From a virus: DNA of 12,818 nt. Positions 7,516 through 12,818 of this stretch are shown here, piece by piece. The stretch is from the UHGV virus genome UHGV-0342252. One strand, 5' to 3'. The notes under the pieces are model-generated. The model saw only the letters and a list, made by a program, of their open reading frames with translations. It was not told the DNA's origin and searched no databases. Position 1 is the first letter of the stretch; each line of letters opens with the position of its first letter. A program made the position numbers and the translations under genes.

Positions 7516-8484
7516 ATGAGTGAAGTAACAGATTTAGTTGTTATTGAAAAAGCAAATGCAATGACTGTATTTCAGTCTGCCGACCAGATTGAAGAAATCC
7601 TTCAAAAGGTTGAACGTGAAGTTATGTCCTTTGTGCCTGATATCACAACGGCAAAGGGCAGAAAGGAGATCGCTTCTCTGGCGTATAAAGTTGCGCAGAC
7701 GAAAACATATCTCGATGGTCTTGGAAAAGACCTTGTTGCTGAACTGAAGGAAATTCCAAAGCTAATTGATGCCAACCGCAAGACAGTGCGTGATCGCCTT
7801 GATGAGCTGAAATCCAAGGCACGCCAGCCTCTTACTGATTATGAGGAAGAACAGGCGCGTATTAAAGCCGAAGAAGAAGCTAAGGCAGCAGCTGAAGCTC
7901 TCGCAAAGCAAATTGAGTCTGACCATGAAATAGCGATTTTGATGGATCGCGAATTTGACCGCCAAAGAGAAGAGGCAAGACTCAAAGCGGAGCAGGAAAA
8001 GCGAGAGCATGAAGAACGCTTAAAAAGAGAAGCTGAAGAGAAAGCCAGAGCAGAAGCCGAAGCAAAGGCAAAAGCCGAAATTGAAGCAGCAGCAAGGCGA
8101 GAGGCAGAAGCTAAGGCCGCAGCGGAACGTGCAGAGCGTGAACGCATTGAAGCCGAGCAACGAGCACAGCGCGAAGCAAAAGAGGCAGCAGAACGAGCTG
8201 AAAGAGAAAAGCAGGCAGCAATTGAAGCAGAACGCAGAAAAGCACAGGAGGAGGCTGAACGAATCCGTCGCGAGGCTGAAGCAAAAGAGCAAGCCAGAAT
8301 AGCAGAAGAAAAAAGAATCAAGGACGAAGAAGAGCGCAGAGCAAAGGATAAAGCTCACCGGAAAGAAGTAAATAACAAAATACTTGCTGACCTTATCAAG
8401 GTTGGCGCATCAGAAGATGTTGCTAAAAATATCATAACAGCCATCGTAAAAGGCGAAGTATTCGCAACAAAAATAACCTACTAA
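7516..8484 (+). CDS. coiled-coil protein with long Glu/Ala/Lys/Arg-rich helical domain (322 aa), function unknown
   Basis: Start set at ATG 7516 (SD GGAGGA, downstream of the terminator) rather than the ORF-track start 7462, which lies upstream of the terminator hairpin. About 110-aa N-terminal domain, about 175 aa of EAEAKAKAE / ERAERE-type repeats, short C-terminal domain. Confidence 0.7.
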   Translation: MSEVTDLVVIEKANAMTVFQSADQIEEILQKVEREVMSFVPDITTAKGRKEIASLAYKVAQTKTYLDGLGKDLVAELKEIPKLIDANRKTVRDRLDELKSKARQPLTDYEEEQARIKAEEEAKAAAEALAKQIESDHEIAILMDREFDRQREEARLKAEQEKREHEERLKREAEEKARAEAEAKAKAEIEAAARREAEAKAAAERAERERIEAEQRAQREAKEAAERAEREKQAAIEAERRKAQEEAERIRREAEAKEQARIAEEKRIKDEEERRAKDKAHRKEVNNKILADLIKVGASEDVAKNIITAIVKGEVFATKITY

Positions 8485-8507
8485 TAAACCAACATAAGGA
8501 ACCACCC

Positions 8508-8654
8508 ATGATTTACGCAATCGCGGGAGGCGCTCGCATGGGTGCCTTCCAACTAAATGAATCTTTACTTGAACGAATCACCCGTAAATTACGTGACGGA
8601 TGGAAACGACTCATCGACGTACTTAATCAGCCAGGAGTTCCAAAAAATGGATAA
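8508..8654 (+). CDS. cIII: CIII, FtsH inhibitor (48 aa)
   Basis: ...ESLLERITRKLRDGWKRLIDVLNQPGVPKNG matches the lambda CIII core as recalled; SD AAGGA before the ATG; stop overlaps the kil start. Confidence 0.85.
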   Translation: MIYAIAGGARMGAFQLNESLLERITRKLRDGWKRLIDVLNQPGVPKNG

Positions 8655-8760
8655 AACACTTATGGCTATCCAGACTAAATTCGCTATCGCCACTTTTATT
8701 GGCGATGAAAAGATGTTTCGTGAGGCTGTCGAAGCCTACAGGAAATGGAGGTCAAAATGA
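8647..8760 (+). CDS. kil: Kil-like host cell-division inhibitor (37 aa)
   Basis: MDKTLMAIQTKFAIATFIGDEKMFREAV... resembles the lambda Kil N-terminus as I recall it; overlaps the cIII stop as in lambda. The ORF-track ORF 8557..8760 shares this frame, but the upstream part lacks a start signal. Confidence 0.65.
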   Translation: MDKTLMAIQTKFAIATFIGDEKMFREAVEAYRKWRSK

Positions 8761-8963
8761 TTACGGTAGAACTGGCGAAAACCCCAGAGTTAAGTCGATT
8801 AAAAAGAGAGTATCACATTGCTGAGGCTCGTTACTGGCGTAAAGCGGGAGATAAATCAAAGAAACAACTTTGTTTATGGCAAGCACAAAGAGAGCGCATG
8901 AATGAGCGCGAATTTCTTTCCTCCCCATCCGAATTACCATTCGGAGGTGAATTATGGATTTGA
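8757..8963 (+). CDS. hypothetical small protein (68 aa) at the position of lambda gam
   Basis: ATG 8757 overlaps the kil stop (ATGA), SD GGAGG upstream. No resemblance to lambda Gam noted. Confidence 0.5.
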   Translation: MITVELAKTPELSRLKREYHIAEARYWRKAGDKSKKQLCLWQAQRERMNEREFLSSPSELPFGGELWI

Positions 8964-9661
8964 ACAAATTCGATGAGCCATTCAGCCCTGAAGATATCGA
9001 ATGGCGAATACAGCAAAGCGGTAAAACACGCGATGGCAAGGTGTGGGCTATGGTGCTGGCTTATGTCACGAACCGGGCAATCATGAAGCGCCTGGACGAT
9101 GTTTGCGGCAAAGCAGGATGGCGCAATGAATACCGCGATATTCCCAACAACGGCGGAGTTGAATGCGGCATATCAATCAAGATTGATTCCGAATGGGTAA
9201 CCAAATGGGATGCTGCTGAAAACACGCAGGTAGAAGCCGTCAAAGGTGGTCGTTCCGGTGCAATGAAGCGCGCTGCCGTTCAGTGGGGAATCGGTCGGTA
9301 TCTGTATAACCTTGAGGAAGGTTTCGCACAAACATCTCTCGATAAAAAGCAGGGATGGCACAGGGCAAAACTCAAGGATGGAACAGGATTTTACTGGCTC
9401 CCTCCATCGCTGCCGGGATGGGCAATCCCAGCATCAGATAACAAACCATCACCAGAAAATACCAACCAGAAATCTCCATCGGTTGACTGCGAACAAATCC
9501 TGAAAGACTTCAGCGATTATGCATCAACAGAAACTGACAAGAAAAAACTCATCGAGCGTTATCAGCGTGACTGGCAATTAATGGCTGGCAACGAGGAGGC
9601 GCAGGCTAAATGCGTTCAGGTAATGAACATCAGAGTTAACGAACTAAAACAGGCGGCATAA
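8954..9661 (+). CDS. single-strand annealing protein, Rad52/Rad22-type core (235 aa)
   Basis: Strong SD GGAGGTGA; motif GAMKRAAVQWGIGRYLYN resembles the Rad52-family annealing signature; sits where bet/erf lie in lambdoid phages. Pro/Ser/Asn-rich linker precedes a separate C-terminal domain. Confidence 0.7.
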   Translation: MDLNKFDEPFSPEDIEWRIQQSGKTRDGKVWAMVLAYVTNRAIMKRLDDVCGKAGWRNEYRDIPNNGGVECGISIKIDSEWVTKWDAAENTQVEAVKGGRSGAMKRAAVQWGIGRYLYNLEEGFAQTSLDKKQGWHRAKLKDGTGFYWLPPSLPGWAIPASDNKPSPENTNQKSPSVDCEQILKDFSDYASTETDKKKLIERYQRDWQLMAGNEEAQAKCVQVMNIRVNELKQAA

Positions 9662-10168
9662 ATGGCAAGCAGAGGCGTAAATAAGGTGATTATCCTTGGT
9701 CGGGTAGGACAAGACCCGGAAGTTCGATACTCACCATCAGGAACAGCGTTCGCTAACCTGACAATAGCCACGTCAGAACAATGGCGAGATAAAAATACTG
9801 GCGAGCAAAAGGAATTGACTGAATGGCATCGTGTTGCTGTATCCGGGAAACTGGCTGAGGTCGTGGGGCAGTATGTGAAAAAAGGTGATCAGATTTATTT
9901 CGAGGGAATGCTGAGAACCAGAAAGTGGAAAGACCAGTCAGGACAAGACCGTTACACAACCGAGGTTCATGTCGGAATTAATGGCGTGATGCAAATGCTT
10001 GGCGGCATTGGCGACAGCAAACAACAAGCAGCCAGCAGGCAATCACAGAAGCCACAGCAGCAATCATCACCAGCACAACACAACGAACCTCCGATGGATT
10101 TTGACGACGATATACCCTTTGCACCAGTAACTCTCCCCTTCCCTCGTCACGCTATTCACGCAATTTAA
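9662..10168 (+). CDS. ssb: single-stranded DNA-binding protein SSB (168 aa) with extended C-terminus
   Basis: OB-fold region parallels E. coli SSB ([16 protein letters not shown]...[15 protein letters not shown]...[17 protein letters not shown]), Gln/Pro-rich linker, acidic tail [10 protein letters not shown]; ORF continues 15 codons beyond that tail. Confidence 0.9.
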
Positions 10169-10244
10169 TCAGGAGAAAATCATGCCAGCGCCTCTGTATG
10201 GTGCGGATGACCCGCGCCGCTGTTCCGGCAATTCCGTATCGTAG

Positions 10245-10478
10245 GTGCTGGAAAGTATCAAGAATAATCTCGGCGCGTTTCTTGCTCTGCCACCAGAAAC
10301 AAAAGCAGAACGGAAGTACCGACGCGATATACAACTCGCAGAAAAACAGGAAAAAGACCGAATAAACGAAACATCAATCCGACCATTACGCAAAGCCACA
10401 TATACCCACTTCCCTGAATATATCGACCCGCGCCTGCGTAATTACCGCTCACGCTATGGCGCTATCAGTAATGACTGA
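10245..10478 (+). CDS. hypothetical protein (77 aa from GTG), possibly the 3' part of a gene interrupted by an amber codon
   Basis: A strong SD (AGGAG, 10171..10175) and ATG at 10182 open a frame that hits TAG at 10242..10244; the same frame continues from GTG 10245 with no SD of its own. Confidence 0.4.
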
Positions 10479-10653
10479 GGAATTTACAATGAGAGGAATT
10501 GCATACAATCCCGGCATTCTTCCGGCAGAAATGATTATTCGCCAACGCGTAAAGCCAATGCCATCGAGAGAGGAATTGCTTAAGAGAAAGAGTTTCGGTT
10601 CTGTTAATGACAACAAATATCTGAATGCTATGTGGCGGAGTGGGAAGAAATGA
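10471..10653 (+). CDS. hypothetical small protein (60 aa; 54 aa if from ATG 10489)
   Basis: ATG 10471 overlaps the upstream stop (ATGACTGA); ATG 10489 has SD GAGG. Same frame either way. Confidence 0.45.
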
Positions 10654-11249
10654 AACAAATGACACTAATTGAGATGGATGGCTTTCTGAAAGGTAAATGC
10701 ATCCCACGAGATTTAAAGGTTAACGAAACAAACGCTGAATATCTGGTGCGTAAATTTGCTGAACTTGAATCAAAGCTGGAAACGGCGTTGCGTGAGTTTC
10801 GTTCTGCTGGAATCACGATTGATAACCTTGAGGCCAAGTGCACTGCGCTGGCAGCGGAGAATGCGGGGATGAAGTCGGTCATTGAATACTGCATTAATCC
10901 CGACAATCAGCCTGAATACCATGACCAGGGCATGGGATGTGGAGTTGAAGACCACGGCTACCAGCGCGACGGCTATTCGGCTTGTTACTACGGATGGGAG
11001 TCGGCAATGGAACGCGTCTACTCAGAGGTTATTCCAGACGCCATTCCAGAAACCCCAGCCACCGATGCTTTTCTGGCTGAAGTGCGTGCGCAGTGCCTCA
11101 ACGCTTTCATCCAGCATCACAGTGCAGAACTGGATGCGCATATTAAAAACAGTGGTGAGCAGTTCGACGAAAAATCAGTACGCATCAGAGACATCATCGT
11201 CTCAGCCCGCTTGTTCAGGGAGCAAATTCGCAAAGGAGCCGCGCTATGA
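10650..11249 (+). CDS. hypothetical protein (199 aa) with Cys/His/Tyr-rich central segment
   Basis: ATG overlaps the upstream stop (ATGA); the ORF-track ORF starts 18 nt earlier in the same frame. No family recognised. Confidence 0.6.
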
Positions 11250-11518
11250 GCAAATCGTACATCGTCATTCAGCAATATCTGTGTTGCAACGAAAACGGTC
11301 ATTGGATTGAGTATGTGTCTGACTGCGTTGAATTTGATAAGCGCGACAAGGCCATCAAGCATGGATTCAAACAGCAAGGTAGCGATGATTTCAATATCGG
11401 CGTTATCGAAAATGAACGCCTAGTGTCATTCGACTGGATGAATAAGTCGATTGATGAAAGCGCAGAAAAACTTGCTGAAATTGCAGAAGCCATCGGTTAC
11501 GAAGGAGCAGCCCAATGA
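11246..11518 (+). CDS. hypothetical protein (90 aa)
   Basis: SD AGGAG and ATGA overlap with the upstream stop. Confidence 0.6.
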   Translation: MSKSYIVIQQYLCCNENGHWIEYVSDCVEFDKRDKAIKHGFKQQGSDDFNIGVIENERLVSFDWMNKSIDESAEKLAEIAEAIGYEGAAQ

Positions 11519-11928
11519 GCAACATCAACAAACAGGCACTGCGTGAAGCGGCTGAGAAGGCCACTCCTGGCCGCGTCGGTGACCGTATCGACGGAAGCGG
11601 TAGCATCAAATACGAATGCCATGGTTATGATGGGTCTCTGGTCTTACGTACAGACCATAAAAACATGGAGTACGGATTTATTGGTGATAACAGTAACGCC
11701 GATGAGCTGTTCTTCAGGTTGTGTGTGCCAGATGTAATTCTGGCACTGCTGGATGAACTGGAAGCCGCAGAGAAGCGGATTGCTGAGCTGGAGCGTAAAG
11801 AACAGCACAGTGACCGACAGTCAGTAATTGATGCGTTGGCTAGTTCGGGTGAGGAATGGAGTGATATCGAAGAATACATGCAGAAGTGGGACGCGGAACG
11901 CGCCGCCGCAGCCGGTAAAGGAGAGTGA
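11515..11928 (+). CDS. hypothetical protein (137 aa), possibly Ead/Ea22-like
   Basis: SD GAAGGAG and ATGA overlap. N-terminus MSNINKQALREAAEKATPG... is reminiscent of prophage Ead/Ea22-like proteins; assignment is from memory and tentative. Confidence 0.55.
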   Translation: MSNINKQALREAAEKATPGRVGDRIDGSGSIKYECHGYDGSLVLRTDHKNMEYGFIGDNSNADELFFRLCVPDVILALLDELEAAEKRIAELERKEQHSDRQSVIDALASSGEEWSDIEEYMQKWDAERAAAAGKGE

Positions 11929-11929
11929 A

Positions 11930-12211
11930 ATGGCTAAATTTACAGACGTACACGACCTGTTAACTGCTTATCAAAAACAGGCCCGAAAAGTACCGCCTAA
12001 GGGAGTTTACGCATCAAAGCAGCGACAACAGGAAGTCCAGGCGGCGCACACGAGAAAGGTAATGCGCCAGCGTAAGCGCTCTGTTGGAAAGTCTAACAAA
12101 TTAGGATTTCGTCGCCGGGCAGAAACTACGGCGGCGCTGATTTGCGAAATGAATTTTTGGGCGCTGGTGTGTCGTTCAAACCGCAAGAATTCCATCCAGG
12201 GTGAGGGATAA
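11930..12211 (+). CDS. hypothetical basic protein (93 aa)
   Basis: ATG 11930 preceded by SD AAGGAGAG; the ORF-track ORF 11828..12211 extends upstream in frame without support. Confidence 0.5.
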   Translation: MAKFTDVHDLLTAYQKQARKVPPKGVYASKQRQQEVQAAHTRKVMRQRKRSVGKSNKLGFRRRAETTAALICEMNFWALVCRSNRKNSIQGEG

Positions 12212-12213
12212 CC

Positions 12214-12818
12214 ATGAGCACTATTACCAAAGAATTAACCAAAGAGCAGTTACAGCAAATTATCGAAACTGACCACGTTCAATGCGGTGAGGCTTCTTCG
12301 CTGGCGCGTATCGCGCTGGCATCGCTCGAAGCGGAGCCTGTGGGTGAGGTTTCCGAGCAGCGTGATGGGCTGGTTATGGACGGCATGGTAGATCTCGGTG
12401 GAGCATCAACTCACCGAATTATTAAGGGAGCTAGCAAGATGAAACGGTTGCCGCTTGGCACGAAGTTTTACACCGCCCCGCTAGCGCCGGTATCTGTGCC
12501 TGATGCGATGGAAATGGATGATGACTTTGACAGCGCGTTTGAACACGGAAAAGCTGTCGGCTGGAACGCCTATCGCGCCGCCATGCTTCAGGCCGAACCC
12601 GTAAGTAATCGTGATGAGTTGCCGTTGGACTATCTGCAAGGTCACAAAGACGGCCTTGAATGGGCGGCACAATTGGCAGAAGCCAATCATCCGCAAACAG
12701 GTGACTGGTTGTACGACGACCCAATCGATCTTGCCAGGGCGATTCGCAAAGGTCCGGATATGCCTACTGTTCAGGGTGGCAGCTCTCCGGTAACTCCGGA
12801 TGGTTGGATAAGCTGTAG
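12214..12818 (+). CDS. hypothetical protein, 3'-truncated by the window end (at least 201 codons)
   Basis: ATG 12214 with SD GAGGGA, 2 nt after the upstream stop; frame stays open to the window edge by manual translation (MSTITKELTKEQLQQIIETDH...). Missing from the ORF track because it has no stop. Confidence 0.5.
   Translation, partial: MSTITKELTKEQLQQIIETDHVQCGEASSLARIALASLEAEPVGEVSEQRDGLVMDGMVDLGGASTHRIIKGASKMKRLPLGTKFYTAPLAPVSVPDAMEMDDDFDSAFEHGKAVGWNAYRAAMLQAEPVSNRDELPLDYLQGHKDGLEWAAQLAEANHPQTGDWLYDDPIDLARAIRKGPDMPTVQGGSSPVTPDGWISC

Follow-up and report, generated by a model that had tools for sequence, protein, structure and literature searches.

Gene content and layout of the block

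The window, i.e. the whole 12,818 nt stretch of virus genome UHGV-0342252 that was analysed, carries a block of seven + strand genes (g1 to g7) downstream of ssb, the last of which is open at the window end (12818). The genes are as follows.

9662–10168, + strand: ssb (context), a 168-aa ORF, middle gene of a Rad52-like SAP/SSB/Abc2 recombination module
10182–10478, + strand: g1, abc2, P22-type anti-RecBCD protein 2 (PF11043, phrog_656), amber-interrupted
10489–10653, + strand: g2, DUF2737 protein of 54 aa (pI 10.7), homologue of P22 orf56 and HK97 gp38
10650–11249, + strand: g3, 199-aa acidic helical mosaic protein, HK97 gp37/P22 EaE-like (phrog_614)
11246–11518, + strand: g4, 90-aa acidic alpha/beta protein of an orphan family limited to Enterobacterales prophages
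11515–11928, + strand: g5, Ead/Ea22-like protein of 137 aa (PF13935)
11930–12211, + strand: g6, 93-aa very basic (pI 11.0) orphan, strongly conserved across Enterobacterales
12214–12818, + strand: g7, opening 201 codons of a predicted 265-aa DUF551 protein, open to the window end

An earlier note, made from the sequence alone, had described these ORFs as genes. In agreement with this, homologues in phages or prophages were found for all of them (7/7), and the three smallest gave dN/dS values of 0.08–0.18 when compared with distant homologues. Genes g2 to g7 were intact and identical or near-identical across many genomes, and the integrase, repressor and replication genes of the prophage were intact as well. 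The products of g3, g4, g5 and g7 had pI values of 4.6–5.0, and those of g2 and g6 were very basic; searches of all seven products against NCBIfam and PADLOC gave no match. The Cys/His-richness ascribed to some of the products turned out to be weak, with Cys and His together accounting for 11 of 199 residues in g3, 5 of 90 in g4 and 4 of 93 in g6. Upstream of the block, ssb was identified by its annotation as such in the ECONIH4 prophage (99.5 % identical) and by a PF00436 match on the identical gene in L020, a 99.98 %-identical metagenome scaffold, and the preceding gene (8954–9661) matched Rad52_Rad22.

The g2/g3, g3/g4 and g4/g5 pairs overlap by 4 nt each in an ATGA motif, and the last two junctions are gaps of 1 nt and 2 nt. 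Wider gaps separate ssb from g1 (13 nt) and g1 from g2 (10 nt), and none of the junctions is an 8-nt overlap, which corrects the description of every junction as a 1–8 nt overlap or a 2-nt gap. A Shine–Dalgarno site of its own precedes each of the seven genes. A consensus scan of 8500–12818, which would miss weak promoters and Rho-dependent terminators, detected neither a sigma-70-like promoter nor a terminator motif on the + strand, and an Rfam search of the same region found no family. The + strand genes upstream of the block are cI, N, cIII/kil and Rad52. Given the lack of internal promoter and terminator motifs, the block reads as one early-left transcript driven from pL, and we infer that a single message spans it; the geometry of the junctions suggests translational coupling. 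The single unit proposed earlier is therefore retained as a tightly packed, putatively co-transcribed array, as indicated by the Shine–Dalgarno sites, the ATGA overlaps and the lack of internal signals, but not as one functional unit, because the cassettes exchange independently (see below).

The unit also extends beyond these seven genes. In L020, g7 is followed by three more + strand genes and then by a divergent integrase, and in near-identical prophages the downstream region comprises the DUF551 gene, three small genes, including one for an AlpA/Xis-like HTH protein, the integrase and an attachment site beside sbcB. An apparent truncation of the integrase in L020 was due to a difference in gene calling and not to a mutation.

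An abc2 gene interrupted by an amber codon

The earlier note had treated the genes of the block as being of unknown function, a description that does not hold for g1. It matched PF11043 over profile positions 1–97 of 97 (139 bits, cut-off 25; E-value 5.8e-41) and phrog_656, 'abc2 anti-RecBCD' (7.8e-47). The sequence was 67 % identical to P22 Abc2, with residues 1–20 all identical, and retained I66-R67-P68, Pro68 being the residue engaged by the host PpiB in the RecBCD–Abc2 structure (PMC9836394). The Shine–Dalgarno sequence AGGAG is located 7 nt before the gene. Instead of an uninterrupted frame of ~97–98 codons, g1 contains an in-frame stop.

10242–10244, + strand: TAG stop at abc2 codon 21, where P22 and nearly all relatives have GAG (Glu)

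Over 351 nt, the sequence differs from that of ECONIH4 at two positions, one of them the G>T change at codon 21. The TAG was shared with L020 only, six near-identical prophages had GAG, and the 61-mer around the TAG had no exact match among 5,426 complete E. coli genomes. Judged by its sequence, g1 is abc2 by descent yet not an intact gene, and it is probably a recent pseudogene.

As the G>T change creates an amber codon, full-length Abc2 would not be made. Amber suppression, or re-initiation at the GTG directly after the stop (10245) to give an N-terminally shortened Abc2, could in principle occur; the stop would strip residues 1–21 from a re-initiated protein, and P22 Abc2 binds RecC via residues 3–52 (PMC9836394). 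The prophage lineage is probably left with its annealing protein and SSB and with no RecBCD modulator.

Near-identical prophages also showed further stop-codon polymorphisms, which affect the stop codon of g4 and a small arf-like ORF.

Protein families of g2 to g7

The product of g2 belongs to DUF2737, as it matched PF10930 over profile positions 1–52 of 53 (98.6 bits, cut-off 25; 1.8e-28), and it also matched phrog_1117. It was 70 % identical to P22 orf56 (dN/dS 0.17) and 91–96 % identical in six phages with differing flanks. A literature search for DUF2737 turned up a single, incidental mention.

One product had been said to carry an Ead/Ea22-like N-terminus, which was confirmed for g5 by its match to PF13935 (68.6 bits, cut-off 27; 1.1e-18). 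A pairwise BLASTP comparison with lambda Ea22 gave an E-value of 5e-6 over residues 2–89, with a 38-residue insertion, indicating that the N-terminal signature is common to both proteins. No similarity was found past approximately residue 90, and the C-terminal dimeric alpha/beta domain of lambda-type Ea22 is absent from g5; likewise, other phages keep only the N-terminal ~90 residues of g5. Since the published Ea22 variants differ in their C-terminal domains, this absence does not exclude g5 from the wider family. Ea22, which affects the lysis–lysogeny choice (PMC7093339, PMC10834534), is mosaic in nature, and DUF551 is a portable domain carried by Ea22_V2 of Stx phages (PMC10834534). The Ea22 proteins of lambda and Stx phages have also been reported to form tetramers.

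For g7, the 201 residues inside the window were 99.5 % identical to an ECONIH4 protein in which PF04448 lies at residues 197–262 (74.5 bits), which would place the DUF551 domain of g7 just past the window end. g7 also matched phrog_60, and its residues 1–43 resembled the N-terminus of P22 EaA (49 % identity), with a second match of 14 residues at g7 188–201.

The g3 protein consists of an N-module, a coiled coil, a middle module containing Cys and His, and a C-module. It matched phrog_614 (5.6e-52) and no Pfam family, and it has more than 7,336 relatives; module swapping is visible in a protein alignment. The AlphaFold2 (AF2) model was all-helical, with a pLDDT of 76. g3 did not match PF13935 (Ead_Ea22), a segment present in only 2 of 48 mosaic relatives, and comparisons with lambda Ea22 and with g5 gave nothing significant; phrog_368 and phrog_14548 are common to g3 and g5 through different parts of the profiles. 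Sequence searches of the PDB with g3, g4 and g6 gave chance-level matches only (E ≥ 0.14).

The model of g4 predicted a small, confident alpha/beta domain for which no structural relative was found. In Klebsiella, its homologues are located in the nin region, between the replication genes and NinB/NinE/NinG. The g6 product had no match in Pfam, PHROGs, NCBIfam or PADLOC; its family comprises 204 cluster representatives, all named 'hypothetical', with 37 columns invariant across genera and dN/dS values of 0.08–0.12. An exhaustive profile search of 1.84 billion representatives with g6 returned only 14 clusters, all belonging to this one small family, and thus no remote relative with a known function. 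The g6 homologues of Hafnia and Klebsiella also lie in the nin region. On the basis of sequence comparison, g4 and g6 appear to represent narrow families of Enterobacterales prophages that are under strong purifying selection, and each moves between the ea and nin regions as a single-gene cassette.

Mosaicism and conserved joints

A matrix of the presence and identity of each gene across related loci showed that every gene is an independently exchangeable cassette. A fixed travelling cassette of g3 to g7 was also considered and rejected, as the Klebsiella loci share g4 only. Similarity at the DNA level broke off repeatedly at the same places (10874, 11049–11093, 11502–11547 and 11758–11793), and three short conserved segments coincide with such recurrent breakpoints.

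10836–10874, + strand: joint 1 in g3 (K-C and 11 further residues), nearly invariant alignment columns 63–75
11049–11093, + strand: joint 2 in g3 (15 residues), with invariant T135, T138, F141 and E144
11502–11547, + strand: g4/g5 junction patch, comprising the Shine–Dalgarno site and first codons of the Ead/Ea22 N-terminus

At joint 1, similarity to five related loci (L001, L011, L012, L014 and L015) stopped at 10851–10876. At joint 2, similarity began at 11043–11052 in L001 and L011–L015, and ended at 11093 in L014, L015 and L016. The g4/g5 patch appeared in L011, L013 and L015 as isolated matches of 46–63 nt (80–94 % identity) with unrelated sequence on both flanks. The coincidence of the joints with the breakpoints suggests that they may serve as recombination substrates; they could instead be conserved for protein function. 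Rad52-like recombinases are known to drive mosaicism on short, diverged homology, and the minimal pairing segment of Red-beta is 23–27 bp (PMC3945230).

Interpretation of the block

Very probably, the block forms the distal end of the early-left (pL) operon in a lambdoid E. coli prophage of the P22/HK97 type, in which accessory cassettes follow a broken abc2. One long, N-antiterminated delayed-early message from pL would carry N, cIII, kil, the recombination module and the 'ea' genes towards the excisionase gene, each cistron being translated from its own Shine–Dalgarno site, and the ATGA overlaps and 1–2-nt gaps would allow ribosome hand-over. An intact Abc2 binds RecC and reprogrammes RecBCD, which leaves recombination to the phage annealing protein. 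Genes g2 to g7 would be non-essential accessory cassettes and not one machine. Two of the cassette proteins, one of them Ead/Ea22, would combine an N-terminal signature with segments that are helical or form coiled coils and with a C-terminal module that varies. The genes, and the domains of g3, would be swapped singly among phages at short (~36–46 nt) conserved joints, a length that phage Rad52-type recombinases can use. Early after infection or induction, g2 to g7 would likely modulate host physiology or the lysis–lysogeny decision, as Ea22 does in lambda and Stx phages, or alternatively counter host defences; 'accessory modulator' names a class for them and not a mechanism.

This placement agrees with the position claimed in the earlier note, that of a non-essential early-left accessory region, P22, HK633, HK140 and mEp213 being laid out alike. 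As for the host-takeover genes expected there, the block holds one bona fide example, abc2, which is probably inactivated here. The region is well sampled: the existence, mosaicism and poor characterization of ea/exo-xis blocks have been documented, and the exact proteins occur in public genomes. The block is thus an ordinary one that was already catalogued, and the outcomes of the analysis are a corrected gene map and the recognition of its first gene as a broken abc2.

With respect to the role of g2 to g7, at least one of them might inhibit a bacterial immune system, the block then being a counter-defence arsenal beside the anti-RecBCD gene, a reading that we put forward tentatively. The block adjoins a known counter-defence gene, and accessory regions containing abc2 hold other host-interaction genes, e.g. 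abc1, which triggers an abortive-infection locus (bioRxiv 2023.04.06.535777). Moreover, the products are small and acidic or very basic, the genes swap fast and hop between both accessory regions, and a small, confidently predicted fold with no relatives, such as that of g4, is typical of many inhibitors. However, general profile libraries and fold searches revealed no likeness in sequence or fold to characterized anti-defence proteins, and Ea22, the sole family member with experimental data, acts on lysis–lysogeny and not on defence (PMC7093339, PMC10834534). Five motifs from g2 to g6 were also absent from the supplement text of the accessory-gene screen cited above, a text that is perhaps free of sequences. 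It is conceivable, if doubtful, that g4 and/or g6 inhibit a host defence or act in host takeover, each protein being directed at one conserved target in the host, and both are reasonable candidates for host-interaction screens of lambdoid accessory genes.

Another possible, rather uncertain, reading is that the block tunes lysogenization and induction as the exo-xis region does in lambda and Stx phages, where Ea22 is pro-lysogenic and ea8.5, orf60a, orf61 and orf63 favour the lytic pathway. Plasmid and deletion experiments have shown that the exo-xis region affects lysogenization and induction (PMC3824215, PMC7093339), and the block occupies the same genomic place, between the recombination genes and xis. 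In addition, g5 is a member of the Ead/Ea22 family with the N-terminal signature of lambda Ea22, and g7 would share DUF551 with Ea22_V2. Against this, g5 has no lambda-type C-terminal domain and is the only product that matched the lambda locus, orf60a, orf61, orf63 and ea8.5 having no counterpart.

That the block is non-functional, drifting DNA in a domesticated prophage is very improbable: the amber codon in abc2 and the additional stop-codon polymorphisms in near-identical prophages would fit decay, but g2 to g7 are intact, near-identical in many genomes and under purifying selection, the prophage has kept its integrase, repressor and replication genes intact, and the genes of the block also occur in plaque-forming phages such as Louie, HK140 and mEp213.

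Almost certainly mistaken are the names 'hNH endonuclease' and 'antitoxin' (of a toxin–antitoxin pair) that NCBI records attach to proteins identical to g3 and g4, respectively. Neither g3 nor any of 48 relatives examined matched a Pfam or NCBIfam HNH profile, comparison of the g3 model with PDB folds gave no match and no nuclease, and a model with no beta strand implies that the beta-beta-alpha-metal fold is absent; g4 matched no antitoxin family in Pfam or NCBIfam and, since it is flanked by entirely different genes in E. coli, in Klebsiella and in more distant loci, it has no conserved toxin partner. Both names were rejected as unsupported and should not be propagated.

Comparison with known systems

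The reading of the block as a distal early-left operon can be set against five known arrangements. In lambda and Stx phages, the exo-xis region (ea22, ea8.5, orf60a, orf61 and orf63) occupies the same place in the pL operon and also includes an Ead/Ea22 member; the likeness to lambda is confined to the N-terminal Ead/Ea22 signature of g5. The nin region carries homologues of g4 and g6, packed just as tightly and in many cases adjacent to a DUF551 gene, but belongs to the other early operon (pR) and has unrelated neighbouring genes.

The early-left 'ea' region of P22 (abc2-orf56-eaE-orf45-eaF-eaD-eaI-eaA-eaG-eaC-xis-int) shares position, orientation and packing with the block, and EaE matches the central part of g3 (34 %). 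P22 differs in having an intact abc2, in carrying Erf, Arf and Abc1 where the block has a Rad52-like protein and SSB, and in lacking homologues of g4 and g6 and any match to g5 at an E-value of 0.01.

Phages of the HK97/HK022/HK620/Sf6 type share a common order, (abc2 or other)-DUF2737-gp37-like-Ead/Ea22-like-small gene-DUF551-...-xis-int, and the architecture of the block recurs in HK633, HK140, mEp213, VSe13, Louie and CurroJimenez. As compared with the block, g2 is 91–96 %, g3 49–62 % and g7 58–68 % identical in HK97-type phages, and Louie carries a g4 homologue (78 % identical). In contrast, none of the six phages examined carries g6, g3 and g5 have different middle and C-terminal modules, and in DNA comparisons each phage record covers at most 45 % of the block.

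Finally, the recombination genes correspond to the HK75-type Rec module (Genome Res 2025, PMC12315714), with the Rad52-like SAP, SSB and Abc2 in the same order. ECONIH4 carries an additional HNH gene between SAP and ssb, and the premature stop in Abc2 is a feature of the block described here.

Gene content and organization of the block

The window covers the part of a lambdoid prophage that holds its immunity and early genes. Its minus strand carries NinB-, primase/helicase-, O-, cII- and cro-like genes, and its plus strand carries cI, N, the gene of a long protein rich in Glu and Ala, cIII, kil, a small arf-like ORF and the gene of an annealing protein of the Rad52/Rad22 family (PF04098), followed by ssb and then by the seven-gene block:

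ssb, 9662-10168, plus strand, directly upstream of the block
g1, 10182-10478, plus strand, 98 codons
g2, 10489-10653, plus strand, 54 aa
g3, 10650-11249, plus strand, 199 aa
g4, 11246-11518, plus strand, 90 aa
g5, 11515-11928, plus strand, 137 aa
g6, 11930-12211, plus strand, 93 aa
g7, 12214 to window end, plus strand, 201 codons, frame still open

The window was compared with a human-metagenome E. coli scaffold (L020; 99.98 % identity over 8,169 nt) and with the E. coli ECONIH4 prophage (99.5 % identical). In both, g7 is a 265-aa DUF551 protein, of which the window holds the N-terminal 201 residues. Beyond g7 lie three further plus-strand genes, including an AlpA/Xis-like one, and next a divergent tyrosine integrase with an attachment site adjoining sbcB. 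On the basis of these flanking genes, we place the block in the distal part of the early-left (pL) operon, after the recombination module and before xis/int.

All seven genes start with ATG, and each is preceded by a Shine-Dalgarno-like motif (AGGAG, GAGGA, GGAG, AAGGAG or GAGGG) approximately 5-9 nt upstream. Gaps of 13 and 10 nt separate ssb from g1 and g1 from g2; the next three junctions are 4-nt ATGA overlaps, and the last two are gaps of 1 and 2 nt. This bears out the tight packing described in an earlier note but not its account of every junction as a 1-8-nt overlap or a 2-nt gap. Consensus scans of 8500-12818 detected neither a sigma-70-like promoter nor a plus-strand intrinsic terminator (shuffles expect about 5 in each case), and no Rfam family matched within the same interval.

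Two further features of the region were observed. The 322-aa protein encoded between N and cIII (7516-8484) is extremely Glu/Ala/Lys/Arg-rich, has no Pfam match and is named 'cell envelope biogenesis protein TolA' in RefSeq; it probably belongs with the Sf6 gene 33 type of low-complexity coiled-coil proteins. ECONIH4, the closest complete genome, carries an inserted HNH endonuclease gene (L001 4063-4530) precisely at the junction of the Rad52-like gene with ssb (window 9661/9662), and its g3 homologue has a shorter middle module; the window has neither.

g1 is abc2 interrupted by an amber codon

g1 aligned from end to end with Pfam Anti-RecBCD_p2 (139 bits, cut-off 25) and also matched PHROG 656, 'abc2 anti-RecBCD'. 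P22 Abc2 is 67 % identical to it, with residues 1-20 identical and Pro68 kept. The combination of a Rad52-like SAP, SSB and Abc2 constitutes the 'HK75-type' Rec module (PMC12315714), and since the window has all three, g1 belongs to the recombination module, so the 'unknown function' previously given to it no longer applies. By its sequence, however, this abc2 is predicted to be broken: codon 21 is an in-frame TAG (10242-10244), where GAG stands in P22, in ECONIH4 and in six near-identical prophages. Among 5,426 complete E. coli genomes none contained an exact copy of the 61-mer around the TAG (722 records fell in the 95-99 % identity band), and only L020 has the TAG in common with the window, indicating a genuine nonsense allele of recent origin that is restricted to this lineage. 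P22 Abc2 contacts RecC with residues 3-52 (PMC9836394). A GTG lies directly 3' of the TAG, and a product re-initiated there would lack part of this RecC interface. The sole gene of the block with a known mechanism would thus be inactivated here.

Stop codons also differ elsewhere among the near-identical prophages. L020 and comparison locus L029 show three differences in 12,600 nt, all touching stop codons: at 8943, a change by which the window and L020 lack the codon-63 stop of the small arf-like ORF (8757-8963); at 10242, the abc2 amber; and at 11518, the g4 TGA stop, lost in L029. ECONIH4 has an extra nonsense change, E18*, in the arf-like ORF (8808). Several of the scattered differences, in small numbers, are G/T transversions. 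The window also has a private non-synonymous change in g7 (12482; Leu90, with Pro in 6/6 relatives compared).

Products of g2 to g7

g2 is a DUF2737 protein (98.6 bits), homologous to P22 orf56 (70 % identity) and 91-96 % identical in six phages with differing neighbour genes. g3 matched no Pfam family but PHROG 614, with more than 7,336 relatives, whose alignment shows three exchangeable modules split by two nearly invariant joints:

g3 joint 1, residues 63-75, plus strand, K-C followed by 11 residues
g3 joint 2, residues 134-148, plus strand, 15 residues

Its AlphaFold model (pLDDT 76) is all helical, with one 57-residue helix and the Cys/His-containing segment as a low-confidence loop, and has no PDB counterpart. 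NCBI records name the identical protein 'hNH endonuclease', which we reject, as g3 and 48 relatives have no HNH family and the model has no beta strand. The g4 family (106 clusters, confined to Enterobacterales) has no Pfam domain and a confident model (pLDDT 91.9; beta-beta-alpha-beta-beta-alpha). All clusters are labelled 'antitoxin', which we also reject: neighbours in Klebsiella and more distant loci are unrelated, and therefore there is no conserved toxin partner. Unsupported by profile, fold or neighbourhood, both names look like propagated misannotations.

g5 belongs to the Ead/Ea22 family (68.6 bits, cut-off 27), as the earlier note had suggested for one product; its likeness to lambda Ea22 is limited to the N-terminal signature. 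g6 is very basic (pI 11.0) and had no match in four libraries. It is strongly conserved: 37 alignment columns are invariant among homologues from E. coli, Klebsiella, Cronobacter, Hafnia and others. When 1.84 billion representatives were searched exhaustively with its profile, only 14 clusters were returned. For g2, g4 and g6, comparison with distant homologues gives dN/dS of 0.08-0.18, which marks them as genuine genes kept by purifying selection. The g7 homologue of phage Louie (L012 4113-4901) is annotated 'Lar-like restriction alleviation protein'; its families (phrog_60, 924 and 7704) are of unknown function in PHROGs v4, and the basis of the name was not found.

Mosaicism of the block

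At the DNA level, phage records each cover at most 45 % of the block. In a per-gene matrix, g2 was present in all, g3 at 49-95 % and g7 at 58-68 %, g4 only in ECONIH4 and Louie, g5 only by its N-terminus and g6 in 0/6 phages. Homologues of g4 (Klebsiella) and g6 (Hafnia, Klebsiella) occur in the nin region, in the pR operon, and therefore the same accessory cassettes circulate between two early operons. These nin-region homologues (L002-L004, L007-L010) often lie beside a DUF551 gene.

DNA similarity to independent phages starts or ends recurrently at about 10874, 11049-11093, 11502-11547, 11758-11793, 12301-12343 and 12469. The first two coincide exactly with the g3 joints and the third extends across the boundary of g4 and g5. 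Several of these places are isolated matches of 36-46 nt (85-97 % identity) with unrelated sequence on both sides. Rad52-type phage recombinases build mosaics on short, diverged homology, and the minimal pairing segment of Red-beta is 23-27 bp (PMC3945230). The most economical reading is that cassettes and domains would have been swapped by homologous recombination at conserved joints. We read the block as an operon whose genes do not make up one functional unit.

Possible functions and comparison with known phages

Experiments in lambda and Stx phages support a pro-lysogenic effect of the Ea22 family, that of g5 (PMC7093339, PMC10834534), consistent with the block genes being putative early modulators of host physiology or of the lysis-lysogeny choice, a reading we hold only tentatively. 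Abc2-containing accessory regions have yielded other host-interaction genes (bioRxiv 2023.04.06.535777), so that at least one gene might, with similarly low probability, be a putative anti-defence gene. Given these two lines of evidence, we rate the readings equally, and they are mutually compatible. The observation in the earlier note is partly confirmed, and its interpretation partly supported.

What novelty remains is in g4 and g6, two well-behaved orphan families, and in the broken abc2. Many public E. coli assemblies encode exactly these block proteins, and published work already describes Ea22 proteins as mosaic and DUF551 as portable (PMC10834534). Blocks of this kind are standard in lambdoid phage genomes and have been catalogued before: P22, HK633, mEp213, HK140, VSe13, Louie and CurroJimenez have the same architecture, (abc2)-DUF2737-gp37/EaE-like-Ead/Ea22-like-small gene-DUF551-...-xis-int.
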